Positions 41,074 to 63,527 of a stretch of DNA of 64,000 bases are shown here, in pieces (position 1 is the first letter of the stretch; each line of letters starts with the position of its first letter). Under the pieces are notes generated by a model. It ran no database searches. It had not been told where the DNA came from and was given only the letters and a program-made list of their open reading frames with translations. The DNA is taken from positions 244,246 through 308,245 of IMG/VR virus record IMGVR_UViG_3300028887_000067; one strand, given 5' to 3'. This DNA comes from a virus (lineage: Duplodnaviria > Caudoviricetes). A program made the position numbers and the translations under genes.

Positions 41074-41197
41074 TATGGCGAAACATCAACGAATCTACAA
41101 GCCCACCAAGAAGCGCGTCAGCGGGTAGGCCGATCCCCTGGCGCGTCCGGGGCTCCTCCGGGAGCCCATTCCTCCTGTACCAACCAAAGGAGTAAGC

Positions 41198-41422
41198 ATG
41201 AACAAATTTAAAATTCTGAACAAGAAATCCGTAGGCTACTGGTCCGCGCTCAACGGGCTGGAGGTCAAGGAAATCGGCGACGACTACGTGGAATGTGTCA
41301 GCGGGTCGTGGGACGGCCACAAGAAGGTGGCTCACTGCGTAAAAATTCATCACAACACCAAGGGCGCCTTTATCCGCCTTAGGGGTTACAACTTCTACCT
41401 TAGGGACATCGTACCGATGTAA
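41198..41422 (+). CDS. hypothetical protein
   Basis: element + RBS. Confidence 0.7.
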   Translation: MNKFKILNKKSVGYWSALNGLEVKEIGDDYVECVSGSWDGHKKVAHCVKIHHNTKGAFIRLRGYNFYLRDIVPM

Positions 41423-41433
41423 TGGAGGCCAAA

Positions 41434-41574
41434 ATGTACAGACTTTTGTCAAAGACCCGTTTCCTGCGCTTCGCCCAGTTTGCGAGCGGTATCGGCCTCG
41501 TGGCTCCCGTTCCCGTGGCCAAGCACGCCTGCAGCGACCTTTACGGGCGGTTCGTGAAGCGCAACGGGCGATAG
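41434..41574 (+). CDS. 46-aa hypothetical protein
   Basis: GGAGG RBS; below ORF-track cutoff. Confidence 0.45.
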   Translation: MYRLLSKTRFLRFAQFASGIGLVAPVPVAKHACSDLYGRFVKRNGR

Positions 41575-41699
41575 CGGGGGGCGCGTGCGGCCGGGCCTGC
41601 GGGCCCGTCCACGTGCGGGAACCGTCCCGCACAATGCCGGCGGCCGGCCGGGGCTCCTCCGGGCCCGCATCCATCCTATACAACGAAAGGAGCTAAGCG

Positions 41700-42278
41700 A
41701 TGGAAACGAACGAAACCAAGACCCTTTACCTCAGGTACGACTGCACGTCCGAAGCGGACGACGTGGCCTGCCTCGTGACGACAATGACCGGCGACGCCTA
41801 CGAGGTCGCCGTGAGGAACCCCGCCGACATCCAGGCCGCCGTGGCCAAGGCCGTGACCGGCCCGACGAGGCCGCTGGTGGCTGCGCTGCTCGAACGCATG
41901 GGCGGTCTCGACAGGGATAGCATCGGCACGGTCGAGGAGACCGGCTGGTACGAAAGCGCCCGCATCAACTGGGCCGACCCCGCCGCCTCGACCGACCACG
42001 ACGGCGGGCTGTACAGGGCCGAGGTGCGCCTCGACGACGGCCTGCTCGAGCTCCTGCGCTCCGACGTAGCCTACGCGCTGGACGACTGGTCGGACTGGGA
42101 CAAGGACAGGGACGGGGTGAACCCGACCACCGAGGCCGTGTGCGAAAAGATTTGTTCCGACGCCGGATTTGGCGACGCGGTGCGGGAAATTTTTCCCAAG
42201 GTGCTGGACGTGCTCCCCAAGGTGATTTACGACATTATCGCCGACCGCTTGGACGGGGCCGACATAAAGGAGGAATAA
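41700..42278 (+). CDS. acidic hypothetical protein
   Basis: element + RBS. Confidence 0.75.
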   Translation: METNETKTLYLRYDCTSEADDVACLVTTMTGDAYEVAVRNPADIQAAVAKAVTGPTRPLVAALLERMGGLDRDSIGTVEETGWYESARINWADPAASTDHDGGLYRAEVRLDDGLLELLRSDVAYALDDWSDWDKDRDGVNPTTEAVCEKICSDAGFGDAVREIFPKVLDVLPKVIYDIIADRLDGADIKEE

Positions 42279-42280
42279 AA

Positions 42281-42544
42281 ATGATTTCTTTCGCCGAATA
42301 CGCCGAAAAAGACCCCCGATACGTGCGCCTGCGCAAGAAATTTAAATCCATTGAAGCGCTTGCCGACAGGGTTGAAGAGAAGCTGGGCACACGGCAGACC
42401 CCCACGGGGTTCGGCCAGAACTTTGACAAGGTGACGGCCGTGCAGAATATGATGACCGAGCGCCTTGTGCAGCTCCGCAAGTGGTACGACAGCGGTGTGC
42501 AGGCCGAGAAGGCGGGCAAGCTGCCCCCGAAGACATTTGCTTAA
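42281..42544 (+). CDS. hypothetical protein
   Basis: AAGGAGG RBS. Confidence 0.7.
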   Translation: MISFAEYAEKDPRYVRLRKKFKSIEALADRVEEKLGTRQTPTGFGQNFDKVTAVQNMMTERLVQLRKWYDSGVQAEKAGKLPPKTFA

Positions 42545-42679
42545 CTCCTGCGGGGACGGGCGGGAAACCGCCCGCCTGCCCCCGTTCCACGGTCCGGCTA
42601 TGCCTGCGGGCGGCCGGGGCTCCCGTGGGAACGCATCAACCCTATACAAGCGAGGAACAATCAACAAAGGAGTTAAGAA

Positions 42680-43285
42680 ATGGGAACCGCTAGTTTCAAA
42701 CAGGGGATAGACCCCAAGTTCATCCCGAGGGTCGTCGAGGAACACCCGACCATCCCCGTGGCGACGACTCAGGTCACGCTGGCCGCCATCCGTCCGATAG
42801 CCAAGCGCATCATTAACGGAGCCCGCTGCATCATGTACGACGCCCCGTGCGTAGCCGAGAGCCACGGCGGTAAGCTGGAATACGTTGCGTGGGGCTCCGG
42901 GCGCACCATCAACGACGGGCTCGCCACGCTGTTCGACGCGACCCGCATCGTAACCACCATCCCCCGCACGAGCATCCTGAAGCCCGGCGAGGTGGCGGTG
43001 AGCCTGGAACGCAACGGGAGCGTGTCCTTCTACAAGATGCCCGAGTCCACGGAAGAGATGAAGGCGATGGCGTGGATTAACGCGGGCAAGCCCTGCGGAT
43101 ACCGCTACGGATTTTCTTGGAAGGGTGCGAGCACGAGACAAATTTCTTCGGACTCCGCCCGTGCCAGACTCTCGCAGAAGAAATATTTTGAACTCAGCTA
43201 CGAACGCCGTGGGGCGAGCACCATCACGTCACAGGGCGAAGAATGGCTCGTGTTCGTGGAATATTCCGAAAACGACCTCCTGTAA
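42680..43285 (+). CDS. hypothetical protein
   Basis: element + RBS. Confidence 0.75.
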   Translation: MGTASFKQGIDPKFIPRVVEEHPTIPVATTQVTLAAIRPIAKRIINGARCIMYDAPCVAESHGGKLEYVAWGSGRTINDGLATLFDATRIVTTIPRTSILKPGEVAVSLERNGSVSFYKMPESTEEMKAMAWINAGKPCGYRYGFSWKGASTRQISSDSARARLSQKKYFELSYERRGASTITSQGEEWLVFVEYSENDLL

Positions 43286-43406
43286 GGGTGCGGCGGGGCG
43301 GGAATCCCGCCCCCCGTTCCCTTCGGGAAACGGTGCGATCGATCCCGGCCGCCCGCCGGGGCTTCCCTGCGGGCGCATTTTTTCTATACAACCAAAGGAG
43401 TTGAAA

Positions 43407-43823
43407 ATGCCTACTAAAACAATCAAGAATGTCGCCAAGAAGGTGACGGGATGCCTGAATAGCATCGTAAAGGGGATGCGTGTCGTCGTCCTCAGCTGCA
43501 GGTACAACACGTCGAGAAGCGGGGACGGCGTCTTCCCGCCCGTGGTATGCTCCACGCCGAGCCGTGCCCGTGAAGAGATGTGGAAGGACGTCAAGAAGTA
43601 CATGAAGACATCCATTGGCGCGGTCAATAAAGACGGGACGATAGATTGGAATTCCGTGGCCGAGATAGGCGATTTTGACGGCACCGAAGAGGACAGCCCC
43701 AAGACGCTTGACGACTTGGAGAAGTACATCATGTCGGGCGATTTCGGGGACAGCCTCACCATACGCAAGGACGAAGACGGGAACTGGTGCGAATGGCGCA
43801 TTGACGAAACCAAGTGCATCTAA
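43407..43823 (+). CDS. hypothetical protein
   Basis: element + RBS. Confidence 0.75.
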   Translation: MPTKTIKNVAKKVTGCLNSIVKGMRVVVLSCRYNTSRSGDGVFPPVVCSTPSRAREEMWKDVKKYMKTSIGAVNKDGTIDWNSVAEIGDFDGTEEDSPKTLDDLEKYIMSGDFGDSLTIRKDEDGNWCEWRIDETKCI

Positions 43824-43947
43824 TCGGGTGAACATGAGCGGGGCCGCGTGCCCCGTTTTTTCTTTCGGAAACGGCCCGGCGATGCCTGCCGCCGTCCGGG
43901 GTTCCTCCGGGAGACCATACGTACTATACAACGAAAGGAGTTAAACA

Positions 43948-44262
43948 ATGGACAGACAACAGCAAGAACTCGTGGACGTACTGGTCAGAGCCAAGCTCGC
44001 ATCGGCCGACGTGGCGAAGGAACTGAAGCTCGTGCGCTACGACCTCGTCAACGCAGCCAGCATCGCCCAGCCGGAACGCAACGCCGCCTACGACAAGCTC
44101 ACCCATAGCATCAACACGGCGCTGGACACCGTCGCCAAGCTGAATCACGCCATCCTGATGGTCGACCCCGAGCACGACATTGCCCACGACAGGGAACGAC
44201 TCGCCGCTCTCGCCGAGGAACACTCGCACGGCTCCGAACCCTGCGACGGGACTCTGGGCTAG
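43948..44262 (+). CDS. hypothetical helical protein
   Basis: element + RBS. Confidence 0.7.
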   Translation: MDRQQQELVDVLVRAKLASADVAKELKLVRYDLVNAASIAQPERNAAYDKLTHSINTALDTVAKLNHAILMVDPEHDIAHDRERLAALAEEHSHGSEPCDGTLG

Positions 44263-44272
44263 GGAGGCTGCC

Positions 44273-44737
44273 ATGTACAGGGTAGACGCCTACGACTTGA
44301 AGCTGGTGAGCGTGCCGGATAGCCACAGGGAGTGCTCCGTGTGCGGCCACTGGCTCCCGCCCGAGAATAATAGCGAGCCGTACCGCAGGACGAACTGCGA
44401 CGCTTGCTACAACGCTCCCATTGAAAAATATAATGAACTTCTAAATAAAACCAATGCGAACAAAAAGAATAAAAAGTACGACGAACTTTGTGAGCTCGCC
44501 GAAAAGCTGAACGCGTGCCAGACCAAGCGCGAGCTTATGGAAAAAATAACCAAGGCGCTCGCCGGCATACCCGACGACGGGCTTGTGTTGCTGGAGCGCG
44601 AGGTCATTCAGCAGGATTACGACGAGACTATCTACGAGGACGACGTGTTCGATACGCAGGCACGTGCGATAGACGCCACTGCGGAACCCGCCCTGGCGGG
44701 TCTCGTGGAACGGTTCTGGGTGATCGGGCTCCCGTAG
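44273..44737 (+). CDS. hypothetical zinc-finger protein
   Basis: CSVC...CDAC; GGAGG RBS. Confidence 0.65.
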   Translation: MYRVDAYDLKLVSVPDSHRECSVCGHWLPPENNSEPYRRTNCDACYNAPIEKYNELLNKTNANKKNKKYDELCELAEKLNACQTKRELMEKITKALAGIPDDGLVLLEREVIQQDYDETIYEDDVFDTQARAIDATAEPALAGLVERFWVIGLP

Positions 44738-44796
44738 CGGGGCCGGGGCTCCTCGGGGCCCCCATCTTTCCTATACAACGAAAAAAGGAGTTAAAA

Positions 44797-45378
44797 ATGG
44801 AAGAATCTACAACCAAGCAGCTCACCCCCGAGGAAAACCGGGCCGAAATTCTGCGCCTGCGCAATATTGCGGAGGAATACCGCAAGGCGTTCGTAAACCA
44901 CCCCAAGTTCGAGGTGAGGAACCGGCACGACAAGCCCGAACGGCTCATCAGGTATCTCGACGACCTTCTCGAAATGGATGCCGAACCGGGCTACAGGATT
45001 GAACGGGAAGAATTCGTAATCCGTACCGGCAGCTACTACACCCGTCCCAAGCTGCCCGACCCCAATGCCCGCTACGTCGTGTGGACGGCAGGCGGCCTCG
45101 GCCCCCTCCTGTTCGGCGACGAATCGATGTGGGCGCAGCTTTGCCCCATCTATGACCGCTTCATCGAGAAGCTCAAGGCGTTCTCGCCCGTTCTCGTGGA
45201 CACCGCAGGCAGCGGAAATATGTTCTTTGACCTGAAGAACGGCAAGCGTGTAATGGACGCCTACGACGAAATCTTCAAGGCCGCAACCGACGAGGCGAAG
45301 GTACTGCGTGACGAAAAGAGACGCCAAGACCTCCTTGCCGAGCTTGCATCGCTCGACGGGCCAACCAAAGTCCAGTAG
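44797..45378 (+). CDS. hypothetical protein
   Basis: element + RBS. Confidence 0.75.
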   Translation: MEESTTKQLTPEENRAEILRLRNIAEEYRKAFVNHPKFEVRNRHDKPERLIRYLDDLLEMDAEPGYRIEREEFVIRTGSYYTRPKLPDPNARYVVWTAGGLGPLLFGDESMWAQLCPIYDRFIEKLKAFSPVLVDTAGSGNMFFDLKNGKRVMDAYDEIFKAATDEAKVLRDEKRRQDLLAELASLDGPTKVQ

Positions 45379-45444
45379 GATGCCGGGGCTCCTCTGGCCC
45401 CCCATCTTTACTATACAAGGAAACAACAGAAAGGAGTTAACAAA

Positions 45445-45861
45445 ATGGCACAGAAACTCATCACCAAGCCCATCATCGACGCTCTCGCCAAGACCCCGTA
45501 CAGGTCGACGGAAAAGGTCGCCCCCGACGACAAGAAGGTCATCGCCCGCTTCTTCGGAGGTTGCGCCTGCACGTGGTACGTCCTCGAGGACGACAGCTTC
45601 TTCAAGGACTACAAGTTGGACGAAAAGACCGGCCTGCTTGTCCCCACCAGTCTCGATGCCGACCACATCGAACCGAACATGACGGTCTTCGGGGCGGTCA
45701 CCCTCGGCCACGGGCTCGAGCTCGGCCCCTTCTCCCTGAAGGAGATTAGCTCTATCCACTTCCCCCCGTTCGGCCTCGGCCTGGAACGCGACATCATGGT
45801 CACGCCGTTGAAGGAAACGCTCGGCGAGCTCCGCAAGCGCTACGGCGAGGAATGGATGTAA
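45445..45861 (+). CDS. DUF2958-like protein
   Basis: ARFF...CTWYV.E, FG.V.LG...ELG.FSL.E, LERD pattern. Confidence 0.7.
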   Translation: MAQKLITKPIIDALAKTPYRSTEKVAPDDKKVIARFFGGCACTWYVLEDDSFFKDYKLDEKTGLLVPTSLDADHIEPNMTVFGAVTLGHGLELGPFSLKEISSIHFPPFGLGLERDIMVTPLKETLGELRKRYGEEWM

Positions 45862-45934
45862 GGTTTGCTTAACTCCGAAACAGGGGCGGGCTCGCCCGCC
45901 CCTTCTTTATCTTTTTTCCATACACGAGGAATAC

Positions 45935-46417
45935 ATGAACACGAAGACAAAAGAAAGTTTCGACATGGACGACCTGCGCACGGAGGAATTTGTCCCGTCC
46001 GGCGAGACACGCGCCAAGGTCGAGAAGTTCCTGGCGGGCATCTACCCGGACGACAACGACCCGGAAATTTTCGACTCGGCGAAGGCGGTCGGCATTGACC
46101 CCGAATACACCATAAAGACGACGGAACATCTTACCTATGACCGTTGCGAGAACGTCCTGACATTTTTACATGTATCGCTCCCCGACGACGAGAAGGCCGA
46201 ACAACTGGCCGAACTGCTGGGAGGCGAGGTCGTCGACGGCCTGCACGGCCACCCCGACGGCAAACGGTTCCGCATTACTTTCCGCGCCGAAATCTACATC
46301 GACGCGGTGAGCGAGGCGGAGGCCCGCGTGAAGTTCGAGCAGATCGATCTATTCGCACCCGACGCGAAGTCGAAGGGAGCGGCCTACGTCGAGGAGTGCA
46401 GCTTCGAGGAGGTGTAA
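45935..46417 (+). CDS. acidic hypothetical protein, paralog of 61273-61836
   Basis: EKFL.GIYPDD, LP...A..LA...GG.VVD shared. Confidence 0.7.
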   Translation: MNTKTKESFDMDDLRTEEFVPSGETRAKVEKFLAGIYPDDNDPEIFDSAKAVGIDPEYTIKTTEHLTYDRCENVLTFLHVSLPDDEKAEQLAELLGGEVVDGLHGHPDGKRFRITFRAEIYIDAVSEAEARVKFEQIDLFAPDAKSKGAAYVEECSFEEV

Positions 46418-46491
46418 CAATTCCCCGGACGGTCCGGGGCTCCTCCGGCCGTCCATCCATCCTATACAAGGAAACAACAAAGGAGCCAAAC

Positions 46492-46926
46492 ATGAAAGTT
46501 TTCGAGATTCTGAACGCCGTCAAGCACTTGAATCGGCGCAGCAAATGGGACAAAGGCGTCAAGGCCTACGCCATCGACCTGCTGGAGCGAGTGGTGAACC
46601 TGTACCAGGCCGACGGCGTGAAGGGCGCAGCAACCGCCGACCAGTTCACCGACTACGAGCAGCTCACCCTGCGCCACGCCATGCAACACAACAACGCCGA
46701 GAAGTACAAGTGGTCCGACCGGTCACCCGAGGCGAAGACGGTCGTCAGTGAGTGCTCGGAAGGCGCCGTGTTCCTCGTGTCCAACGAGGACATAGCCAAC
46801 CGCCTGTTGACGAAGCGCCAGAAGGCCTGCCTGCGCACGTACTGCCTAGGCACGGCTCACCAAACACGTGCCCTATGGGAGGCGCTCGACCTTATCAGGC
46901 GTATCGCACGTGGCGACCGCTACTAG
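46492..46926 (+). CDS. hypothetical protein
   Basis: element + RBS. Confidence 0.75.
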   Translation: MKVFEILNAVKHLNRRSKWDKGVKAYAIDLLERVVNLYQADGVKGAATADQFTDYEQLTLRHAMQHNNAEKYKWSDRSPEAKTVVSECSEGAVFLVSNEDIANRLLTKRQKACLRTYCLGTAHQTRALWEALDLIRRIARGDRY

Positions 46927-47069
46927 ATCGATCGCCCGTGGCATAATTTTCTTAACTCCGTATCCCCCTTCTGGGGGTTGTTCCTTGGGGAGCTCCGGGC
47001 GGCGACTACCCAGCCGTCGCCGGGGCTCCTTTGCCCGTCCATCGACCCTACATCAGAAAGGAGGTAAAC

Positions 47070-47633
47070 ATGAAACATTTCGGCATCAAGACCAAACGAA
47101 AAACTCTGAAACCGATTGACGAGACGCTGGTGCGCTTCGACACGGGCGGCGACGAATGGCTCTACGTGAGCAAGCTGTCGGGCGATATCGAGCTCGGCGA
47201 CGGCCGCAAGTGCGGCGTGAAGCTCGCCGTGTGGGTGCTCGACGAGATGGCGGTCCCGTCCGGCGACACCAAGCCAGGCGACTACGGAATCCACTTGTGC
47301 ATGGTCCCCGACGCGTCGAGGCTCGGGCCCAAGGCCAAGAAGCGCGTCGCCGACTCGTGCGGCATCGACCCCAAGGACGTGGACGAATACGAGTGCTGGC
47401 GGTACGGGTTCGGCGTGGCTTACGGCAGGGAGTGCTTCGACATCTCCATCGGCCGTTGCGAGAAGCTGGAGGGAATCACCGGCGTGGACGACCCCCGTGT
47501 GCAAGAACTTGTTCAGTTCGCCGGAGACGTTGTCGCCCCCTGCGCCGTCTCGCTCGTGGGGTACACGCTTGACCTGCCAGTGAACCACGCTGGAAAGACG
47601 GGATGGGACGCCGTCAAGGACTGGGTGGAATGA
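47070..47633 (+). CDS. hypothetical protein
   Basis: element + AAGGAGG RBS. Confidence 0.75.
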   Translation: MKHFGIKTKRKTLKPIDETLVRFDTGGDEWLYVSKLSGDIELGDGRKCGVKLAVWVLDEMAVPSGDTKPGDYGIHLCMVPDASRLGPKAKKRVADSCGIDPKDVDEYECWRYGFGVAYGRECFDISIGRCEKLEGITGVDDPRVQELVQFAGDVVAPCAVSLVGYTLDLPVNHAGKTGWDAVKDWVE

Positions 47634-47703
47634 CCCCGGACCGGGGCTCCCCGGAGCCCCGATATTTCCTGTACAAGGAACCCAACCACAAAGGAGTTAA
47701 AAC

Positions 47704-48183
47704 ATGGGACACTACATTTGCTATCACGAGCAGCACACCGTCCGTTTCCGACCCGGCTACGCACAGTCCGACCTTTCCACCTGGTGGCGTCAGCAAACTC
47801 CCGCAAAGCGGGACGGCTGCACCGACTACCCCGAGGTGCGCATCCTGAATGACGGCGCGATTTCCAAGGCCGCCCTGTCCAAGTACGACAAGACTTACCG
47901 TGACGGCGCCATCGCAATGGGCAAGGACGCCCCCGACCAATTCATGGAACTCATCCCGCAGTACAAGTGTCACGCCGTGTTGCTCGGTATCAAGGGGTGG
48001 CGTGCCGTCCGCAGGGTCCGCAAGGTCGTTAACCACCACATCCGCGAGGTGGAGGAAACCAAGGACTACAAGACCCGCCCCAAGACCCCGCTGAAGGGTT
48101 CCACGCTCTACGCCCTGGGAGTTTTCTGTGTGAGCTATGACGCCCGTGACTACGACCCGATGGAGCACGCCTCCTTCGACTAA
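47704..48183 (+). CDS. hypothetical protein
   Basis: element + RBS. Confidence 0.75.
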   Translation: MGHYICYHEQHTVRFRPGYAQSDLSTWWRQQTPAKRDGCTDYPEVRILNDGAISKAALSKYDKTYRDGAIAMGKDAPDQFMELIPQYKCHAVLLGIKGWRAVRRVRKVVNHHIREVEETKDYKTRPKTPLKGSTLYALGVFCVSYDARDYDPMEHASFD

Positions 48184-48309
48184 TATCGGGGGGCTCAGGC
48201 CCCCTTTCCCTCGATCGATGGTGTTGACACTGTCGGCAACCGTCCGGGGCTCCTCCGGGCGACCATCCGTACTATACAACGAAACAACCAACCACAAAGG
48301 AGTTAACCA

Positions 48310-49119
48310 ATGAAAAAGACGGCACTTACCGGCATCACCACCATCCTCCCCTTCGACACGGACTACATCAAGGTCGGCAAGGACAAGGACACCAAGTGGA
48401 ACCTCATGGACAAGGACGGCAAGCTGATTTCCACGACCTGGTTCCAGAGCGTCGAACGCAACCGTGACGGCAGCATCTCCACGACCGTCATCGAGGCGAA
48501 GACCCACACTGTGGCACCCGTGAAGTTCATCGACGTCGTCGCCATGCGCAGCTTCTCCGACGTGGTGGCCATCATGCCCCCCGTCGTGATGAACCTCGTC
48601 GACACGGGCAGCATCAAGCCCTGCGACGACGGCAGGTACGTGGCGACCGCCTCGTTCTACGGGATGAAGGTGTACATCACCAAGGAGGGGCACATCTACG
48701 ATACGAACGGCGTCAAGCTGCGCATCCTCTTCAACACGGTCGACACGGAGCGCCTGAACAATTGCCTGAACAAGCTGAACAAAAAGTTGAATTTTGATTT
48801 TGATGGCAACGAAAAAAGTTTCCAGTGGAGCGACACCATCAAATCCAAGGAGGCAATTTTTGCCTTCTACTGGGTGACCGATGATTGTTCCGTCGACCTC
48901 GGCTGCAACACTCCCTTGACGCATATGGGAAGCGAAAAGTGGTCCGACGACCTGAAAATCCGCGCTGACCAGCTGATGCCCGAAACCGTCCGCCAGTCCC
49001 TCTCCAAAACATGGAACAAGACTCCCGAATACATGGATGGCTCCGGCTACTCTTCTTGGACGTGGACATTCAAGAAGGAGCAGCTTGAAGAAATTATCTC
49101 CGCTCTTGAGGCCATCTAG
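48310..49119 (+). CDS. hypothetical protein with WG-repeat-like segments
   Basis: KWNLMDKDGKLISTTWF; element + RBS. Confidence 0.7.
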   Translation: MKKTALTGITTILPFDTDYIKVGKDKDTKWNLMDKDGKLISTTWFQSVERNRDGSISTTVIEAKTHTVAPVKFIDVVAMRSFSDVVAIMPPVVMNLVDTGSIKPCDDGRYVATASFYGMKVYITKEGHIYDTNGVKLRILFNTVDTERLNNCLNKLNKKLNFDFDGNEKSFQWSDTIKSKEAIFAFYWVTDDCSVDLGCNTPLTHMGSEKWSDDLKIRADQLMPETVRQSLSKTWNKTPEYMDGSGYSSWTWTFKKEQLEEIISALEAI

Positions 49120-49197
49120 CCCGGTGGAAATGGCTCTGCCCGGCCGGGGCTCCTCGGCCGGGTCATTTTTTCTATACAACGGAAAAAGGAGTTTAAA

Positions 49198-49623: not shown

Positions 49624-49711
49624 ATGTTCAAGCCCGCCGGACCGGGCCTCCCCGGACCGGCAATTTTTCCTATACAAGGAAACAACCATCACCACCAACA
49701 AGGAGTTAACA

Positions 49712-55159: not shown

Positions 55160-55231
55160 GAGGCCAGCTTGTCCAAGAATTCCACCCGCATCCTGAAACC
55201 AACCAAGAAACGCATATCAGGGAGGTAGCCC

Positions 55232-55564: not shown

Positions 55565-55622
55565 TCGTCCGGGCCTCCTCGAGGGGCCCATCCTCCCTGT
55601 ACCAACCACAAGGAGTTAAAAA

Positions 55623-56225
55623 ATGTTCCAATTAATAATCCGCCAGACCTACCCGACCGACTGGGCAGACGCCGTCCTCCGTGCCGAGGCGTATGCCTTC
55701 GCCCACCAGGCGTGGGACGCCATCAAATACACGCTCGTCAAGTTCCTCGAAAGCCACGTCGGCTGCGCGGTGTTCCGCAAGAAGTATGACGAGGTCAAGA
55801 AGATGGAAAAGGAGGCCATCGCCGAGGCAGAGCGCCGCTGGGCGGAGAAGAGAGCCGAGCTGGACCGCAAGCTGAACGCCGAGGACATGGTCTTCCACGA
55901 CCGCCTGCGGGACACCCTGTCGAACTACGGGCTGCGCTCCGCCGAGTATGCCGAGGTGCAGGCCGAGGCCGAGAAGATGGCGAAACGCCGTGCCGACGAG
56001 TACGACAAGCTCGACGCGGGGCGCAAGGCCGAAATCGACAATATCGAGGCGGACTTCAAGAAAAAGAAGGAAAACTGGGTGCTCAGAAAGGGCGGCTCCG
56101 TCGACGACTTCGTCAACAGCTGCCGCAAGGAGAAGCTGAACCTGGACGGGATTGAGCTTCTCATCGACAGGCAACACGACAAGACCGGCGTGCCGGACCA
56201 GACGATCATCACCTCGGCCCCGTAG
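55623..56225 (+). CDS. coiled-coil hypothetical protein
   Basis: element + RBS; E/K/A-rich. Confidence 0.75.
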   Translation: MFQLIIRQTYPTDWADAVLRAEAYAFAHQAWDAIKYTLVKFLESHVGCAVFRKKYDEVKKMEKEAIAEAERRWAEKRAELDRKLNAEDMVFHDRLRDTLSNYGLRSAEYAEVQAEAEKMAKRRADEYDKLDAGRKAEIDNIEADFKKKKENWVLRKGGSVDDFVNSCRKEKLNLDGIELLIDRQHDKTGVPDQTIITSAP

Positions 56226-56289
56226 ATCCCGCCTGGGCTCCGGGGTTCCTCCGGGGTCCCATACTCCCTGTACCAACCAAGGAGGCAAC

Positions 56290-56706
56290 ATGAAGACCTG
56301 CGAAATCCCCAAGGAGAAGAGCGTAGCCGCTTTCAGGAACTACGACTTCGAGAACAACTACGTCCCCGAGAAGTTCCAGGGGGAGGTGGGCTACCAGCGG
56401 TTCGCCAAGGGTTACTTCATCCCCATCGCCAGACGGGAGATGAGGAAACTCGCCAAGAACATCGGCGCGAAGCTCGCCAGCTTCAGCAACAACACCTTCG
56501 AGTTCAGCTGCATGTTCAAGAAGGACGGCCGCTTCATCTACGCGAGGATCGACGACGTGCGCTGGAACGACTGGTACGGTCGCGTGCTGTACCGCACGGC
56601 CGACGACGTGAACGACTGCAGGGGCGGTAGCAACAACTGGTGCAGCTACGACCGGCTCGAGGAGTCCGTCAAGTCCCTGTTCGACGTGATGGCCCGCCGC
56701 AACTAG
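56290..56706 (+). CDS. hypothetical protein
   Basis: element + RBS. Confidence 0.75.
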   Translation: MKTCEIPKEKSVAAFRNYDFENNYVPEKFQGEVGYQRFAKGYFIPIARREMRKLAKNIGAKLASFSNNTFEFSCMFKKDGRFIYARIDDVRWNDWYGRVLYRTADDVNDCRGGSNNWCSYDRLEESVKSLFDVMARRN

Positions 56707-56799
56707 TCGACAGCGTTTCCACAGGATGTGGGCAGGACGTCAACGGACTGCCCATATTTTGTAAACTTTTTATTTACAATTTATCAACAGGGGTTCAAC

Positions 56800-57087
56800 A
56801 TGCCGTACGTTCTGAAGAAGGGCGAGAAGACCTACACGGACCTGTTCGGGATGGCCGATTTCCTCTCTTTCGAGGAGGCCGCCGAGTGCAACTACGAGCT
56901 GCTCAACAACGAGTACGAGATAGTACCCTCGGAGAAGACCGAGGCCCAGGTGCTCGCCGAGAGGAAAGCCATTTTCGACCGCCTGAAAGCAGGCGGATCC
57001 CGTAAGCCGGCCGGGGCTCCTCCGGAGTCCCATCCGTCCTGTACCAACCAAGGAGGCACAAAATGTTCAGATTCTTATGCGCGGTGA
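56800..57087 (+). CDS. hypothetical protein whose frame runs through element copy 57011
   Basis: AGGGG RBS; out-of-frame TAA at 57003 just before the element. Confidence 0.5.
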   Translation: MPYVLKKGEKTYTDLFGMADFLSFEEAAECNYELLNNEYEIVPSEKTEAQVLAERKAIFDRLKAGGSRKPAGAPPESHPSCTNQGGTKCSDSYAR

Positions 57088-57311
57088 TCGTGGTCATCTT
57101 CGCTATCCTGTTTTTCCTGTCCACGCCGAGCACACAGAAGACGGTGAAGGACGCGGGAAAGTCCATGGCGTCCGACGTGGCCACTATGGCCGTCGACGCT
57201 GTGGTGGAGTACGCCGAGGCGAGCGCCCGCAAGCTCGTGGCGAAGACCGACGAGGCCCGTGCGGCCGGCGGAAAGACCCTCAGCGAGGCGGGAAAGGTGG
57301 TGTCGAAATGA
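57063..57311 (+). CDS. hypothetical membrane-anchored protein
   Basis: element + RBS; N-terminal TM. Confidence 0.7.
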   Translation: MFRFLCAVIVVIFAILFFLSTPSTQKTVKDAGKSMASDVATMAVDAVVEYAEASARKLVAKTDEARAAGGKTLSEAGKVVSK

Positions 57312-57604
57312 AAGACTACTTCAAGGGCAGTACCACCACACTATCCTCGGCGCGACACGCCGCCGTGTCGGCAATCGCCAGCTTCTTCTGCGCCGAGCGC
57401 GATCGATCGAACCGGCCCGAGGACTGCTCCTACGTCGTGGACTACGGGAGCGGGGCGTTCCAAGTCGCCAGCATCTTCGGGCGCAGCGATTCTCAGTTCT
57501 ACGAGGATATGAACGAGCGACTGCCGAGGAAACTGGCCGGCCGGACAATTTTCGTCGCAGAGATCGGAAACCGCAGGCGCAAGCCCAAGAAGTTCCAGTT
57601 CTGA
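57308..57604 (+). CDS. hypothetical protein
   Basis: ATGA overlap. Confidence 0.65.
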   Translation: MKDYFKGSTTTLSSARHAAVSAIASFFCAERDRSNRPEDCSYVVDYGSGAFQVASIFGRSDSQFYEDMNERLPRKLAGRTIFVAEIGNRRRKPKKFQF

Positions 57605-57656
57605 CCGGGGCTCCTCCGGGAGCCCATTTTTCCTGTACCAACCAACGGAGGCTAAA

Positions 57657-58418
57657 ATGAAACGACTTATTCAGATGGTCGAGATCACGTACAGGCGATT
57701 CACCCTCAATGGCTACTACTCGGACTGGTTTGAACATCTGTCCAACCGGATATACGACCGAATCCACGAGATCCAGAACAATCTCCGCCACAAGTACAAC
57801 GGCCAATCCGTCCTGTTCGATATGGTCGTCAATGACCGCGGCGACCACGACGGCGAGGAGGGTTTCGTCAAGGCGGTGTTCATTGTCCCCGAGGACGAAG
57901 TCAAGGAGTGTATCAACCCCGTCAAGAGCCTCGACAGTAACATAGAGGTCTCGACTGAGCGGCTGAAACAGAAGACGCCTAACAAGAAGATCAAGCCGCT
58001 CAACGAAGGGCAGTTCGTGTGGCTGCGCTACGAGAACACCCTGTACTACGATTTCCCCCGTCTTACCAAGTACGAGCAAGATTTTGTACACGGGCAGGCC
58101 AGGTCCGTCGTCTTCGTGAACAAGACCGGCATAACCCGTTCCACGCTGGCCAAGCTGACCGACTTCGTGGACGCGGATACAAAATTTGTTTCCAGCATAC
58201 GACGCGACGCGGTGCAGGCAGGCGCATCCTATATGCCGATGTCCTACGGCATGACGCTGGAGAGGGCAAAGGCGTTGCTCAGCCTCTGCCGCAGGAACCG
58301 CGACGCCATCCGGTTCACCATAGGCTTCGAAGAGCACAGGTTTTTCCAGCTGGGCCAGAAGACGGCCATTGAGCTCCTTGAGCACGTGGTATCGATCCAT
58401 AAGGCGAAGAAGAAATAG
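57657..58418 (+). CDS. hypothetical protein
   Basis: element + RBS. Confidence 0.75.
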   Translation: MKRLIQMVEITYRRFTLNGYYSDWFEHLSNRIYDRIHEIQNNLRHKYNGQSVLFDMVVNDRGDHDGEEGFVKAVFIVPEDEVKECINPVKSLDSNIEVSTERLKQKTPNKKIKPLNEGQFVWLRYENTLYYDFPRLTKYEQDFVHGQARSVVFVNKTGITRSTLAKLTDFVDADTKFVSSIRRDAVQAGASYMPMSYGMTLERAKALLSLCRRNRDAIRFTIGFEEHRFFQLGQKTAIELLEHVVSIHKAKKK

Positions 58419-58481
58419 CCGCGACGCGCCGGGGCTCCTCCGGGAGCCCATTTCTTCTATACCAACCAAAGGAGATACGGA

Positions 58482-58907
58482 ATGAAATTCTACACGGCAA
58501 TCGGAAACAAGAACGGGAAGCTCGAGTGCGTAGTCCGCACCAAGGGGCGCGACGCCCGCAACGCGTGCGCGGTTCTGGCCAGCGGTCACCTCGGAGAGGG
58601 GGACGCGACGCTGGAGAAGTTCGTCGAGGCGTCCATCGACGGGACCCCGTACAACGACAAGGACACGTACGAGGCCGCCGTGCGCAAGGCCATCCGCCAC
58701 GCCAACCACACCGACTTCTACCTGAAGACGAGCAGGGGCGAGTACAGGACGGCTCTTGACACGCAGAACGTCGACCTGAAGGTGTACCTCGTGCAGGACC
58801 CCGAGCATCCGGGCGTCGTCACCATGTCCGAGAAGGTGCGCGACAACCTGACCATCCAGTACGCAGGCATGAAGAAACGGGCGGTAGTGTCCGAGACCAC
58901 GTTCTAG
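58482..58907 (+). CDS. hypothetical protein
   Basis: element + RBS. Confidence 0.75.
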   Translation: MKFYTAIGNKNGKLECVVRTKGRDARNACAVLASGHLGEGDATLEKFVEASIDGTPYNDKDTYEAAVRKAIRHANHTDFYLKTSRGEYRTALDTQNVDLKVYLVQDPEHPGVVTMSEKVRDNLTIQYAGMKKRAVVSETTF

Positions 58908-58964
58908 TACAGGCCGGGGCTCCTCGGAACCCCCATTTTTTCTGTACCAACCAAAGGAGAACAC

Positions 58965-59453
58965 ATGGCAAAATCTGAAAAACTTTTCGTCGTCGTCGAA
59001 TGGGACGACGGGGCTGACCTGAGCGAAAGCCCGGATATCGCCGGGACGGCTTGCACGACCGAGCAGCTCGCGCTGGCCAGCGCCAACGTAGCAGCCCAGG
59101 AGTACGGGCGGTCGAGCCGATGCAAGTTCGATATCAAGGTCGACCGTGACGACCGGAGAGTGAGCTGCTCCATCCTCGGACAGGCGCACCGCTTCAAGGT
59201 CCGCGAGGTCAAGCTGCCCGCAGGGTACGTGCTCGTGAAGACGGGGGCGACCGGCAAGCCCAAGAAGAAGGACCGGGTCACCGTGATCACCCGTGGATTT
59301 GGGAAGTACTACGACAACGCGGAGGCGGCCATCAAGTTCTACACGGAAGCCGTCCACGGATGCGACCCCCAAAGCTCCGAATGCGCCCGCTACAATACGA
59401 TCCTCGACATGCTCCGGCGCGGTTTCAAAGTTATCCACGCGGATCACGTCTAG
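58965..59453 (+). CDS. hypothetical protein, N-terminal domain shared with 62977-63447
   Basis: element + RBS; H.F.V..V.LP..G...KPKK. Confidence 0.75.
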   Translation: MAKSEKLFVVVEWDDGADLSESPDIAGTACTTEQLALASANVAAQEYGRSSRCKFDIKVDRDDRRVSCSILGQAHRFKVREVKLPAGYVLVKTGATGKPKKKDRVTVITRGFGKYYDNAEAAIKFYTEAVHGCDPQSSECARYNTILDMLRRGFKVIHADHV

Positions 59454-59514
59454 TCCGATGACCGGGGCTCCTCTGGGGCCCCATTCCTTCTGTACCATCC
59501 AAAGGAGTTCGAAC

Positions 59515-59925
59515 ATGAAAGACGAATTGAAGGCAAAACTTATTGCCACCGACGCGAAGAATCCCTTAAAGCTGACCGGCGAAGAAATGGACAAGAGAAT
59601 CCAGGAGGTGTGTACGGCGTGGTACAACCGCCAGTCCAAGTGTGAAGTGGTCGCCTATCCGGCCCACTTCATGCCGAGCTATGGGTACAAGATAAACGGA
59701 TCGCCCATGTTCCCGTTTCAGAGCGTCGTTGTCGTGAACGACGGTTCTGGATGGAAGCACGCCGTCGATATCAACATAAGCACGACCCGTGAGCTCCTTC
59801 CACCGGAGCGCGAGCCGGACGGAAGGATTACTAGGACCCCGCTGTACATGGTGTCTAGTATCTGCTTGGACTTCAACCGAGCTGGCCGTGAAGCTCTCGA
59901 ACCGCGAAGGCCGACTGGCCGATGA
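59515..59925 (+). CDS. hypothetical protein
   Basis: element + RBS. Confidence 0.7.
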   Translation: MKDELKAKLIATDAKNPLKLTGEEMDKRIQEVCTAWYNRQSKCEVVAYPAHFMPSYGYKINGSPMFPFQSVVVVNDGSGWKHAVDINISTTRELLPPEREPDGRITRTPLYMVSSICLDFNRAGREALEPRRPTGR

Positions 59926-59980
59926 TGACCGGGGCTCCTCCGGCGCCCCATCCATCCTGTACCAATCAAGGAGATCAGAC

Positions 59981-60253
59981 ATGGCAAACAAAATGTCAGA
60001 TAAGGAAATTGACAAAAGGGTCGCCCGCATCACCAAGCAGGTCGACCAGTACAACAGTACCCACGACAAGAAGCTGGTGTTCGTCGCCGAGGAACGCACC
60101 CCCGAAAAGGACCAGATGGTCGTGGCCCGCAAATACAAGCTCGGCAGGCGCACTTTCTACTTCTGCGGGTGCCGCACGTTGCCCGAACAGGCCGTGGTGC
60201 CCGGTAAAAAGGGTTACGCCGAGTACCTCGACGAATTTCTCGAAACCCTGTAG
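59981..60253 (+). CDS. hypothetical protein
   Basis: element + RBS. Confidence 0.7.
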   Translation: MANKMSDKEIDKRVARITKQVDQYNSTHDKKLVFVAEERTPEKDQMVVARKYKLGRRTFYFCGCRTLPEQAVVPGKKGYAEYLDEFLETL

Positions 60254-60317
60254 CAACGGTACCGGGGCTCCCCCGGATGCCTATAACCACTATACCAACC
60301 GCAAAGGAGACTAAAGA

Positions 60318-60737
60318 ATGCTGTGGTCAAAGGAAATCAACAAACAGTTTGGAAAGACGATACCCCGCTTCTATAAGAACTGCTGGGCAGTGGCCAAGGA
60401 CGGCTTCTATCTCGGCAAGCCGGTCCACCTCGTCACGATCGCTCTGAAGGCGATCCAGGACGGCGACACTTGTCCGTACTGTGGAGGCAAGGCCGACCCC
60501 AACGAAGTGTCTATGTCCGTGATGTCCACCAATTGGGAGCGCGGCAAGGCACTCCCCCAAGACCCCTATATAGAGGCCAGTTGCCAGTGCGCGAAGTGCA
60601 AGGAGTGGTGGACGGTTCGCCAGCGCGGCACCGAAGTCTGTCTTGACTACTATCCGCCTCGTACCGGCCACGACAGCTACAGTCTGTCCGAAACCGCTCT
60701 GTACGGAGCGTACCGTGGGAAAACTGGCTCGAAGTAG
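60318..60737 (+). CDS. zinc-ribbon hypothetical protein
   Basis: CPYCG...CAKC; element + RBS. Confidence 0.7.
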   Translation: MLWSKEINKQFGKTIPRFYKNCWAVAKDGFYLGKPVHLVTIALKAIQDGDTCPYCGGKADPNEVSMSVMSTNWERGKALPQDPYIEASCQCAKCKEWWTVRQRGTEVCLDYYPPRTGHDSYSLSETALYGAYRGKTGSK

Positions 60738-60787
60738 CCGGGTTTCCCTTGGTTTGCCATAACCACTATACCAACAAGGAGTTAACA

Positions 60788-61198
60788 ATGGCGCACACAC
60801 CATCATGCATTTCCCGAGCTACCCAGAAGGTACTCAACGTGGTCACCACGCATCCTGACGTCACTCAGCTGCTTCAGAAATGGGTTACCAAGCCTTTACT
60901 CGACGGTCTCGCCGACGGGATGTCACTGGGATGCTTCCACTTCGACATGAAGCCGTCAGCGTTCGCATACGCCGGAACACGCCGGGCCAGACTGAAAGCA
61001 ACGGCCAAGCGTGACTTCGACTGTATCCAAGCCGCCTGTAACGGTGGACTGTTCAGACAAGGCAAGTTCTGGATGAAGGTCAGTGCATCGTTCGTACCAG
61101 TTTACGACCCAGTGGTCAAAAAGCCGCAATACCGTTACATTGTGGAGTTCCAGCTTATGTCTGAAAATACACCACAGAACGAGTTCACGGCACGGTAG
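60788..61198 (+). CDS. hypothetical protein
   Basis: element + RBS. Confidence 0.7.
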   Translation: MAHTPSCISRATQKVLNVVTTHPDVTQLLQKWVTKPLLDGLADGMSLGCFHFDMKPSAFAYAGTRRARLKATAKRDFDCIQAACNGGLFRQGKFWMKVSASFVPVYDPVVKKPQYRYIVEFQLMSENTPQNEFTAR

Positions 61199-61272
61199 CC
61201 ATACTGGTTTCGAACCGGCCGGGTCTCCCCGGCCCGGTTATTTTCTCTATACCAACCACAAGGAGTTCAAAA

Positions 61273-61836
61273 ATGAGCGTTAATTCCCACATCCACGAAT
61301 ATGACAGTACCGAAGTCGATAGCTTCCTCTCTGAATGCGGTTGCCGCCTCTCTGATTCCGAGGCCGCCGAGAAGTTCCTCCACGGTATCTACCCCGACGA
61401 CTCCGAACCGGACGACGATTCCGCCTACGATATGGACAAGGGTAAGGACGACCCGGTGTTCAAGATCCGGGTGAACGACAACTCTATGGACGACTACTAC
61501 GAGGAGAACTACCTCAAGATCCACTTGCCGAACCGTGACGCGGCCGATGAACTGGCTGCAATTGTGGGCGGCGATGTCGTCGACGAACCCGAAGGCCAGT
61601 TCTTCATCAGCGGCTGCCACCACTTCGAAGACGGCGACGAGGTAATCCAGGTGCCGACTATCTTCGACAGTCTCGACGACGCTGCCAAGACCGTCCGCGA
61701 TATCGTGAACGAAACGATCACGGAAAGCAATTCGAGCCACGAAAAGGTGACTGCCGAAGATTGTAAGGACGGCTACGAATTGTCGCCGCACGGAGGGGTC
61801 GAAAAACTTTTCCTGAAGATCATCAAGGCGAAGTAA
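61273..61836 (+). CDS. highly acidic hypothetical protein, paralog of 45935-46417
   Basis: element + RBS; D/E-rich. Confidence 0.75.
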   Translation: MSVNSHIHEYDSTEVDSFLSECGCRLSDSEAAEKFLHGIYPDDSEPDDDSAYDMDKGKDDPVFKIRVNDNSMDDYYEENYLKIHLPNRDAADELAAIVGGDVVDEPEGQFFISGCHHFEDGDEVIQVPTIFDSLDDAAKTVRDIVNETITESNSSHEKVTAEDCKDGYELSPHGGVEKLFLKIIKAK

Positions 61837-61902
61837 TGTCTCTGGGTGTCCGGGGCTCCTCCGGAGCCCCATTCTCCCTGTACCAACCACAAGGAGTTAA
61901 AT

Positions 61903-62448
61903 ATGGCCGACGAACTTAAAATTACCCACGAACAGATCTTGGAAATGCCGCTTAGCAAGTACATCGCCAAGCACCCCAAGAAGTTCAAGATCACCGACCC
62001 GCACGACTGGCCGTATATGTTGAGCTTGTCAATCTATAACCCCTATGACAAGAAGTTCCACCACTTGTCCGACATCCGTCAAGGCGACACTGTACACGAT
62101 CAAGGCCGTCCGTACCTCGAAACAAGCTCATACATCTTCTTCGACTGCGAATGGGATGCCAAGATGATATGGACTGACGGACCGCTCAAGAATGGCTGCC
62201 CCGAAACCTATTCTCCCACACGCGCTCTCTTTACCACACGCGGTGTCGATAAGACGTGGTTCGACACTATGACCCCCAAGCAGATTGACGAGATCTATGA
62301 CCGATTCCTCGGCTTCTATAAGAAGGTAGCCGACTGGATCAAGGCGGACAAGGCCAAGCGCAAGGACGATTTCAAGAAGCGCAAGGACGAAGTTATCTTG
62401 GCCGCAAAATCCTTTACCGATATGGCCAAGCACCTTCTCACGAATTGA
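61903..62448 (+). CDS. hypothetical protein; frame stays open after TGA to 62604
   Basis: element + RBS. Confidence 0.7.
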   Translation: MADELKITHEQILEMPLSKYIAKHPKKFKITDPHDWPYMLSLSIYNPYDKKFHHLSDIRQGDTVHDQGRPYLETSSYIFFDCEWDAKMIWTDGPLKNGCPETYSPTRALFTTRGVDKTWFDTMTPKQIDEIYDRFLGFYKKVADWIKADKAKRKDDFKKRKDEVILAAKSFTDMAKHLLTN

Positions 62449-62659
62449 AAAAAGGCCAAGTGTCCCGATGACTACGATTTCCTTCGTGAGATCGATGAAA
62501 ATTGGCGAGCCATCCAGGACGCTAAGAGCAGCTTGGAAACTCTCATCAAGCGCGGAGAACGGCTCAACCCCGCCAAGAAACCCGAAGCTACTGTCCAGCA
62601 GTAGCCGGGCTTCCCCCGGATGCCTATAACCACTATACCAACCAAAAGGAGATACGAAA

Positions 62660-62902
62660 ATGGCTACGACCAATTGGAACGAGCTCGGCGCAAAGGACGC
62701 CGAAAAGGAAACACCCCGCAAGACCGAAGGTTTCCCTGACGAAAGCGCTCAGAACGAATACAACGAAGGTTTCAACAACAAGTGGTGGGAAAAGGGTAAC
62801 GACGACGCACGTGCCAGCCGCGAGCAACGCACCGACCTTCCCAAAGACGACGCCCAGCTGGTCATCCACTACAGCGACGGCTACCAAGACGGCGAATACT
62901 AG
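62660..62902 (+). CDS. acidic hypothetical protein
   Basis: element + RBS; Y..GF/W..G/Y..GY helical repeats. Confidence 0.7.
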   Translation: MATTNWNELGAKDAEKETPRKTEGFPDESAQNEYNEGFNNKWWEKGNDDARASREQRTDLPKDDAQLVIHYSDGYQDGEY

Positions 62903-62976
62903 GCCGCTGTCTGGACCGGACCGGGCCTCCCTGGCCCGGATATCATCTCTATACCAACCAACATCAAGGAGCGGAT

Positions 62977-63447
62977 ATGCAGAAACAAGTTTGGGTCATC
63001 GTCGAGAACGACGACCGCGAAGCGACTGAAGTCACCGTGCACAAGCAGTCGATTGAAGAGTACGACAAGGCGTTCGGTAAAGCGATGAGCCTTGCGCTCA
63101 AGTACCGCGCCGACATGCCGGGCGCTTCCGAGATAACCCACAACAAAGACGATGGTAAAGTCCACGTCGAGGTGGCTGGACTGTACCACCACTTCACGGT
63201 ACACGCGGTCAACTTGCCCCCGGCCGGCAAGGACAAGCCGAAAAAGAACCTTTTCAAGAAAGGCGATGAAGTATGGGTCAGCGGTTACATTTCCACTGAA
63301 GACTACAACTGCCGTGTAGATTCGCAGGGGGTCGTCGAGGCTGACCAGAAAACGGTTCGCTCGAAGGTCTTGGTGACTATCGACTATATCGACGGCGACC
63401 ACAAGGCGTGCCTCTCCGTGGATCCCAAGCTACTCTCCCTCAAGTAG
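62977..63447 (+). CDS. hypothetical protein, N-terminal domain shared with 58965-59453
   Basis: element + RBS. Confidence 0.75.
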   Translation: MQKQVWVIVENDDREATEVTVHKQSIEEYDKAFGKAMSLALKYRADMPGASEITHNKDDGKVHVEVAGLYHHFTVHAVNLPPAGKDKPKKNLFKKGDEVWVSGYISTEDYNCRVDSQGVVEADQKTVRSKVLVTIDYIDGDHKACLSVDPKLLSLK

Positions 63448-63527
63448 ACTGGTCCAACGATACCGGGTCTCCACGGCCCGGATATCATCGCTATACCAAC
63501 CAACAACCAACCAAAAGGAGTCAAGAA

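Follow-up and report, generated by a model that had tools for sequence, protein, structure and literature searches.

Stem-loop cassettes resembling PeSLs, with a candidate non-sigma70 promoter, head the genes of a terminal array in an uncultured giant T4-type phage

The final 64 kb of IMGVR_UViG_3300028887_000067 (here G000), a linear IMG/VR virus contig of 308,245 bp with a completeness estimate of 81%, end in an array of about 42 short cassettes, each heading a single gene, and the signal carried by these cassettes is our subject. We call these 64 kb the window, and coordinates given without a prefix are window positions. Its late-promoter box, and a tail sheath and a DNA polymerase among its products, mark G000 as an uncultured giant T4-type phage. 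The sequence CCGGGGCTCC, whose first C is column 0 in the 5' to 3' numbering of cassette positions used throughout, occurs in 28 exact copies between 37135 and 61850, all on the + strand, and in no copy outside the array in the rest of the 308-kb contig. If one or two variant bases are allowed, 36 alignable copies and 6 divergent variants are found, again all on the + strand and within the final 27 kb.

36826..64000, + strand: array of about 42 single-gene cassettes, reaching the contig end
Cassette column 0, part 1: 36826, 37135, 38447, 38923, 40293, 41147, 41648, 42614, 43356, 43896, 44743, 45383, 46434, 47020
Cassette column 0, part 2: 47641, 48244, 49144, 49642, 50339, 50977, 51143, 52384, 53054, 53244, 53707, 54147, 54779, 55569
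Cassette column 0, part 3: 56240, 57011, 57605, 58429, 58914, 59462, 59929, 60262, 60738, 61219, 61850, 62605, 62921, 63463
38992..39963, + strand: ArdC-like anti-restriction gene (ArdcN + MPTase-PolyVal), headed by cassette 38923

The ArdC-like gene is the sole array gene with a family match: none of 10 other array proteins, taken from among the larger ones, matches Pfam, and a BLAST search with 7.9 kb of the array against GenBank phages returned no match.

Each cassette is built from four boxes, which we designate U, B, C and D and illustrate with the copy at 41147.

41132..41138, + strand: box U, here GATCCCC
41139..41168, + strand: GC-rich hairpin, whose 5' arm and loop are box B, CCGGGGCTCC(TC), at 41147-41158
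41167..41169, + strand: box C, (C/T)AT, columns 20-22, the candidate -12 to -10 positions if the start is column 32
41175..41182, + strand: box D, CTRTACMA, columns 28-35, with the predicted RNA 5' end near 41177-41179
41186..41200, + strand: Shine-Dalgarno sequence AAAGGAG and the ATG of a 74-amino-acid gene

Fixed geometry is the most conspicuous property of these cassettes. Box C at column 20 and CTRTAC at column 28 keep a constant spacing across copies, and a search with floating gaps returned a gap of 10 nucleotides (nt) before (C/T)AT and one of 5 nt before CTRTAC in 32 of 35 copies, the other 3 keeping the same gaps once column 20 may be G (GAT) or column 28 A. In the fixed alignment of 36 copies, columns 0-4, 7, 9, 21 (A), 22 (T) and 29 (T) are invariant, columns 8, 32 and 35 agree in 35, columns 28 (C) and 31 agree in 34, and column 30 is A in 25 and G in 11, while columns 15-17 and 23-25 are nearly unconstrained. 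Box U, ACTGnCY at columns -15 to -9, is conserved at a fixed distance except where the upstream gene overlaps it. Columns 20-35 form an AT-rich island in surroundings of about 58% GC. This geometry is far above chance. An earlier note on this DNA had placed CAT at +20 and T(A/G)TAC at +29 in copies 41147, 41648, 50977 and 57605, which is how they read, and had described the distance from TRTAC to the ribosome-binding site as variable, as it is: from column 32 to the ATG there are 18-38 nt in standard copies and up to 99 nt in variants. To that description we add the hairpin closing near +20, box U at -15 to -9 and a layout that matches the stem-loop cassettes known as PeSLs, discussed below.

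The same cassette recurs in a relative. G001, an IMG/VR contig of 355 kb and 93% completeness, runs collinear with G000 (nucleotide identity 63-89%). Its array occupies 339-355 kb: variant copies come first, and from 342 kb onward 17 canonical cassettes follow until the contig ends. Its cassettes have the same geometry, with the box CCGGG(T/C)(T/G)TCCCC, mostly TAT as box C (so that it reads GGYTAT) and CTATACAA; A21 and T22 of box C are again invariant (17/17). Among the array genes of G000, 41 encode at least 35 amino acids, and 14 of these have homologues in G001, in scrambled order; the rest of the genome is collinear. In metagenomes and in IMG/VR we searched with a relaxed cassette pattern, the skeleton pattern. 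It picked out arrays of several copies at no fewer than 19 metagenome loci, which together supply 128 unique cassettes. Box U columns are left free by that pattern, and in 117 metagenome copies A stands at -15 in 100, T at -13 in 102 and C at -10 in 92. Within IMG/VR the strict G000 pattern had no match, and the skeleton found arrays in G001 only, together with chance single matches at 14 loci that comprise three unrelated sequence types, twelve of the loci being near-identical.

Box B (columns 0-11) had been read in the earlier note as a simple upstream promoter box; it instead makes up the loop and 5' arm of a GC-rich hairpin, which in nearly every copy closes near column 19-20. The hairpin spans about columns -8 to +20 and is centred near column 6-7, with stems that average 8 pairs and reach 12 at most, and its pairing register differs among copies, the 3' arm pairing either with box B itself or with the variable 5' flank. 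We kept the flank and box of each copy, exchanged the 3' arms among copies and compared folding energies. Native hairpins are more stable than swapped ones in G000 (mean -14.8 vs -13.5 kcal/mol; 0 of 200 swaps as low), in G001 (-16.1 vs -13.3 kcal/mol; 0 of 200) and in the 117 metagenome copies (-13.5 vs -11.3 +/- 0.23 kcal/mol; 0 of 100; z of about -9.7). The cassette hairpin is thus selected as a structure. No Rfam family matches the cassette.

Conventional promoters are scarce around these cassettes. A consensus scan found no sigma70-like promoter on the + strand between 35000 and 43400, and between 55000 and 64000 it found none on either strand, against 3.0 +/- 1.5 in shuffled sequence. 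Over the + strand of the array the scan returned a sigma70-like site at 54815 and weak 9-of-12 matches at 43401, 45197 and 52930, which lie inside long open reading frames. Position counts of the cassettes themselves contain no sigma70 hexamers, that is, no -35 and -10 separated by a 17-bp spacer. Canonical terminators do stand inside the array, in a cluster with proper T-runs at 38118-38380 that precedes cassette 38447, and before cassette 43896.

43836..43868, + strand: canonical terminator (GC stem and T-run), 38 nt 5' of cassette 43896, whose own hairpin is additional to it

Because these terminators stand before 38447 and 43896, transcription would have to restart at the cassettes. The cluster at 38118-38380, flanked on its other side by an array gene, consists of about 8 short hairpins, each followed by a T-run and several of them near-repeats (GCGCCCTATGGCG, AACCGCCTAGGGCGGTT), which may be tandem terminators or small RNA genes.

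Where RNA would begin is narrowed by the shortest cassettes and by the variants.

38447..38513, + strand: variant cassette retaining U, B and CAT, with GTGTGTGA in place of D and a leader hairpin at 38478-38499
38923..38991, + strand: variant cassette, GAT box, leader hairpin from column 31 (38954-38975)
54779..54860, + strand: variant with hairpin and GAT at 54779-54801, TTGACA-N17-TACATT at 54815-54843 and the D-like TATAACCAACC at 54850-54860
60738..63500, + strand: last five cassettes, with the box type of G001 (CCGGGTTTCC, CCGGGTCTCC, CCGGGCTTCC, CCGGGCCTCC) and TAT in four

In the shortest copies GGAG begins at column 39-40, which places the start upstream of about column 38. Four variants with unrelated leaders, 38447 and 38923 in G000 and those at 339.4 and 339.8 kb in G001, fold a stable leader hairpin from column 31/32 (z = -3.0 for 38447), as expected if the RNA 5' end lies at or just before that position. 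In copy 54779 and at one metagenome locus (L144), about 45 bp containing TTGACA-N17-TACATT are inserted between the hairpin and the D-like TATAACCAACC, and a 7-nt rule puts the start of the inserted 54815 promoter on the D-like sequence. The AT richness of columns 20-35 is as expected for a melted region. Together these observations indirectly support an RNA 5' end near column 30-32, with A21 at about -11, and they make a non-sigma70 promoter the most likely identity of the element. The earlier note had proposed both a start near +32 and a non-sigma70 class: the start gains indirect support from the shortest Shine-Dalgarno sites, the leader hairpins, the 54779 insert and the lack of sigma70-like promoters, and the class from counts and scans without sigma70 hexamers, whereas fixed spacing, on which the class had been based, is by itself no proof of a promoter. 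The leader hairpins of 38447 and 38923 that the note had put at +32 are present and begin one base earlier, at +31.

Several familiar promoter classes were tried and set aside. The E. coli sigma32 promoter is CTTGAAA-N13-15-CCCCATNT, and some G000 copies do carry CCCCAT before the presumed start, a likeness that had been remarked on at the outset. It does not extend far: the -10 sequence CCCCATNT is found in 3 of 42 copies, TTGAAA is absent from the counts, and the cassettes of the relative read GGYTAT instead. Box D taken as a -10 element, in the manner of TATAAACT late promoters or of the sigmaE/K CATACA, would start RNA 6-7 nt downstream, inside the Shine-Dalgarno site of the shortest copies. 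Box U read as a sigma54 site has, on inspection, no -12 element at the right distance.

A search of the genome for a sigma factor or an RNA polymerase, as the earlier note had advised, yielded the former and no T7-like or two-barrel polymerase. At G000:C1:154897-155706 lies a gene for a 270-amino-acid protein of the sigma70 family, with matches to PF04542 (region 2; 33.2 bits, cut-off 24) and PF04545 (region 4; 27.4 bits, cut-off 24.1). Its best family models are RpoD, RpoS and RpoH, all far under their cut-offs, and residues 48-257 align to solved SigA/RpoD chains. At what we take to be the -10-reading positions 430, 433, 434, 437 and 440 in E. coli sigma70 numbering, Y430, W433, W434, Q437 and T440 of sigma70 are replaced in the phage protein by F, F, E, R and D, and the region 4.2 recognition helix of the phage protein keeps the E and one R. 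Upstream of the gene stands TTGCAT-N17-TATATT, a promoter of the host-type class TTG-N17-TATATT; the late-promoter box ATAAACT (class NATAAACT) occurs on the strand opposite the sigma gene and also upstream of a gene for a 1994-amino-acid protein.

The sigma family appears specific to a clade. It comprises about 54 clusters at 37-100% identity, all near 270 amino acids and some on contigs of up to 479 kb; below the family, identity drops to 30% for cellular sigmas, and no close homologue was found in GenBank isolate phages. G001 has exactly one such gene and no second sigma. The contig of G002, whose sigma is 56% identical, is without the array region. In a more distant clade, represented by IMGVR_UViG_3300028591_000075 (G007; sigma 42% identical to that of G000), an array at about 250600-253312 (L208), running to the contig end, contains at least 6 small genes, each headed by a 75-bp cassette unlike that of G000, in which CCACCGTGT is followed by the inverted repeat GTGCC/GGCAC and then by GAACATCGTGGGAATGTTCA. 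Across clades region 2.4 of the sigma is nearly the same and the region 4.2 helix differs in G007, alongside a retained CAT and different upstream boxes, a parallel that is suggestive only.

The polymerase searches covered several families. Neither G000 nor the 93%-complete G001 matches PF00940, the T7-like polymerase, and control genomes were silent too. Searches for DFDGD-type and D.D.D motifs of two-barrel polymerases found none, family-A motif B is absent beyond the known PolA-like gene, and PHROG and Pfam profiles on 12 large proteins identified no RNA polymerase. Five proteins of 1420-2198 amino acids (L065-L069; G000:C1 90575-96559, 183098-189694, 32223-36971, 69883-74574 and 15692-19954) are without a Pfam or PHROG match. 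Four further large late proteins of 1043-1418 amino acids have no PHROG match, and the ESM Atlas held no usable match for the 1994-amino-acid late protein.

The closest known counterparts are the PeSLs of the T4-like phages RB49/phi1, T4/PST and KVP40/nt-1 (Arbiol et al. 2010, PMC2839356; Comeau et al. 2014, PMC4122927), in which, within hyperplastic regions, a stop codon is followed by a stem-loop, a sigma70-like early promoter, a Shine-Dalgarno site and an ATG (PMC2839356; PMC4122927). The PeSL stem-loop is often poly-G then poly-C and lies mostly between -35 and -10 or over -10 (PMC2839356); promoter and terminator activity have been demonstrated, and the cassettes mediate gene shuffling (PMC2839356; PMC4122927). 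Related elements with Mot boxes, PmSLs, occur in phage nt-1 (PMC4122927). The G000 array likewise occupies a hyperplastic region of a T4-type genome, has one cassette between consecutive small co-oriented orphan genes, repeats the order of stop codon, stable GC stem-loop in or over the promoter, Shine-Dalgarno site and ATG, and shares shuffled gene units with a relative, as the comparison of G000 with G001 illustrates. Unlike PeSLs, its cassettes have no TTGACA/TATAAT-like boxes in the promoter part, the 5' arm and loop are invariant in sequence and the 3' arm is variable, four boxes hold an invariant register over about 52 bp, and most stems are without a T-run; unlike the PeSL phages, G000 carries an extra full-length sigma. 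By this comparison the cassette is a PeSL-like unit in a new version, with a putative non-sigma70 promoter part, an invariant hairpin top and a four-box register.

We favor, at about even odds, the reading that these are PeSL-like stem-loop and promoter cassettes of a non-sigma70 class, with a start at about column 30-32, probably read by way of the clade-specific phage sigma. Each cassette would be a composite unit of stem-loop, promoter, leader and ribosome-binding site that moves with one orphan gene. The GC hairpin would form in RNA reading through from upstream and would attenuate incoming transcription or shield the message upstream at its 3' end. DNA would open at the AT-rich island (C/T)AT-N5-CTRTAC, with RNA starting at about column 30-32, and box B, perhaps with box U, would provide upstream contacts. 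The reader would most likely be the host core RNA polymerase with the 270-amino-acid sigma, itself made from a sigma70-type promoter, and the array would then be a delayed-early or middle class. Early-made sigmas that redirect the host core polymerase are established for SPO1 (gp28 and gp33/34) and phiEco32 (gp36), and the proposed order, in which a host-type promoter makes the phage sigma and a phage-specific promoter class follows, resembles theirs. G000 differs from both in the obligatory hairpin of its cassettes and in having a sigma family specific to an uncultured T4-type jumbo clade, with a putative link between sigma and cassette.

A number of observations sit awkwardly with this reading. 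A start at column 32 puts box B at -32 to -21, not at -35 to -30, and a 17-bp spacer would place the -35 hexamer at columns -3 to +2; with that start CCGGGGCTCC, first proposed as an upstream box, falls at -32 to -23, some 3 bp further downstream than the usual -35 hexamer, and extends into the spacer. The T expected at -7 is unconserved (column 25 is T in 18 of 36 copies), and sigma-dependent promoters seldom show conservation as strong as that seen here around the start. Immediate-early expression would be anticipated for an anti-restriction gene of the ArdC type, and a sigma that first has to be synthesized accords badly with that; the phage sigma could equally read the TTG-N17-TATATT class. 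In no single register does covariation between columns exceed expectation, and the swap test is positive, so that the evidence supports pairing as such, not a fixed helix. Five or more T occur in columns 21-28 after only 9 of 42 G000 hairpins, the copies of the relatives being more T-rich; most G000 hairpins are therefore not classical terminators and are at best attenuators or 3' stabilizers. Finally, boxes C and D without the hairpin occur elsewhere in G000 or G001 at chance level only. Because C and D are never hairpin-free outside the array, the hairpin may belong to recognition and not be a separate module. The stronger claim, that the hairpin is part of promoter recognition and that the clade-specific 270-amino-acid sigma or an unrecognized phage polymerase reads a structured promoter, we consider quite unlikely. 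If it is true, a new class of hairpin promoter, sigma-dependent or otherwise, drives the whole shuffling accessory array, with a cassette co-evolved in each clade.

The promoter might be real and its reader something other than the phage sigma: a phage activator bound at box B, box U or both could redirect host polymerase, or a host alternative sigma could act, and we rate this as unlikely. T4 middle promoters, with a Mot box at -30, a sigma70 -10 and appropriation of sigma by MotA and AsiA, are the obvious model, and the cassettes resemble them and PmSLs in having a box centred at about -27 to -30 in place of a -35, at a fixed distance from a -10-like element and before early-region genes. 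Box B would be centred at about -27 and box U at about -44, positions typical of activator sites, and just 5' of the first cassette, at 36634..36725 (+ strand), stand about 9 tandem box U-like units of 11 bp (ACCCATGCCAG) that resemble a protein-binding array; the start of the G001 array has no iteron-like repeat, and thus no counterpart of them. Sigma70-type promoters coexist in the arrays for particular genes, which suggests a separate regulatory class for the cassettes, and PmSLs with Mot boxes in nt-1 (PMC4122927) add a point in favor. However, the cassette box reads CCGGGnnTCC and not TGCTT, the -10 region has no TAnnnT of the kind that a sigma70-dependent middle promoter requires, a symmetric dimer site is unlikely because the 3' arm of the inverted repeat varies freely, and among host sigmas the sigma32 -10 is matched in just the 3 copies mentioned. 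No activator gene was identified, the MotA and AsiA families not having been searched for. A different possibility is that there is no promoter at all and the cassettes punctuate long transcripts as RNA, with processing at box D and a hairpin that stabilizes the upstream 3' end, comparable to RNase III action on T7 early RNA. The hairpin is indeed selected as a structure and often adjoins the upstream stop codon (gap 0-20 nt), boxes C and D never occur without it, and leader hairpins at column 31/32 would suit a processed 5' end equally well. A processed 5' end at that place is weakened mainly because the array is poor in sigma70-like promoters and terminators precede cassettes: no sigma70-like promoter feeds the start of the G000 array, canonical terminators lie directly before cassettes inside it, and at least 27 kb with 42 genes would require internal starts. 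Box U and the 5' flank are moreover kept even downstream of a terminator, and Rfam offers no match, so that we think RNA-only punctuation quite unlikely.

Two further explanations fare worse. N4 virion RNA polymerase reads an extruded hairpin promoter with a 5-7 bp stem and a 3-nt loop, centred 11-12 nt before the start, and an unrecognized phage or virion polymerase might read the G000 cassettes in a similar way, the array genes then being immediate-early. Here too a hairpin with a conserved top lies upstream of an early-gene start, and its invariant top over a lower stem that need only pair is what protein-recognized hairpins look like; the anti-restriction gene argues for very early expression, and at least 5 late proteins of 1420-2198 amino acids, among which the 1994-amino-acid one has a late promoter box, are without Pfam or PHROG match and could hide such an enzyme. 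Yet the cassette hairpin is centred at about -25, some 25 nt before the presumed start, its stems are GC-rich and 8-12 bp long, PF00940 is silent in G000 and in the 93%-complete G001 (as it is in the controls), a DFDGD-type motif was not found, nor was family-A motif B apart from that of the PolA-like gene, and no T4-type phage is known to carry an RNA polymerase; the idea seems very unlikely to us. If the cassettes served chiefly for recombination, as has been proposed for PeSLs or in the manner of attC, and had no transcription signal of their own, this would agree with the shuffling of single-gene units between G000 and G001 and with the G001 box type of the last five G000 cassettes. Homology-driven exchange has no need of the pattern of invariant and free columns, nor does it call for AT-rich boxes C and D at a set distance from the leader; the conserved RYYYAAC/GTTRRRY cores of integron attC sites are absent from the cassettes; and no integrase is evident beside the array, where the neighbours are DUF5758 paralogues and a TnpB-like gene, PF00589 itself not having been searched for. 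We find this hardly credible as a sole explanation, and recombination is in any case compatible with a promoter rather than an alternative to one.

If the phage-sigma reading is right, promoter-plus-stem-loop cassettes of T4-type phages are not bound to host sigma70 promoters, and an accessory region of at least 27 kb would be governed by a third class of promoter, specific to the phage, in addition to the host-type and the gp55-type late ones. Purified components would suffice for testing the candidate pair of sigma and promoter, no cultured phage being needed. The short cassette pattern also retrieves arrays of orphan genes from metagenomes, and such arrays probably hold anti-defence and host-takeover genes.

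Another element also recurs. At the gene 3' ends 40162-40260, 42536-42590, 45864-45910 and 46947-46980, TTTGCTTAACTCC is followed by a GC hairpin, and this 10-mer is the exact complement of the array ribosome-binding region GGAGTTAAGC. The window contains 12 matches to it where 2.7 are expected; 4 are sense and the remaining 8 are the ribosome-binding sites themselves, and three such units stand in tandem at about 341060-341210 of G001 (L039). They could be antisense RNAs, derived from 3' untranslated regions, against the ribosome-binding sites of the array.

Directly 5' of the array, at 31008-36363, lie four tandem paralogues of 400-435 amino acids, each with a DUF5758 domain at its C-terminal end, and the non-coding DNA ahead of the array contains a perfect palindrome, AGCATA-TAG-TATGCT, at 36495-36509. 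Another neighbour is the TnpB-like gene (OrfB_IS605 and a Cas12f1-like TNB domain) at window positions 26622-27920. Three related arrays, L111 (- strand, about 12350-13000), L078 and L145, include a conserved gene for a 195-amino-acid protein that has its own TTGACA-N17-TATATT promoter and no cassette; the protein, absent from G000 and G001, has repeated W-T-x-E/K-x-I motifs and a C-terminal helix-turn-helix. In G007, at about 246800-247800 (L208), there is a CRISPR-like array with at least 15 copies of a 36-nt repeat (GGTAGAGGTGCCACCGGTTTACATGGCGCCGATACC) and spacers of about 30 nt, the first three of which are identical.

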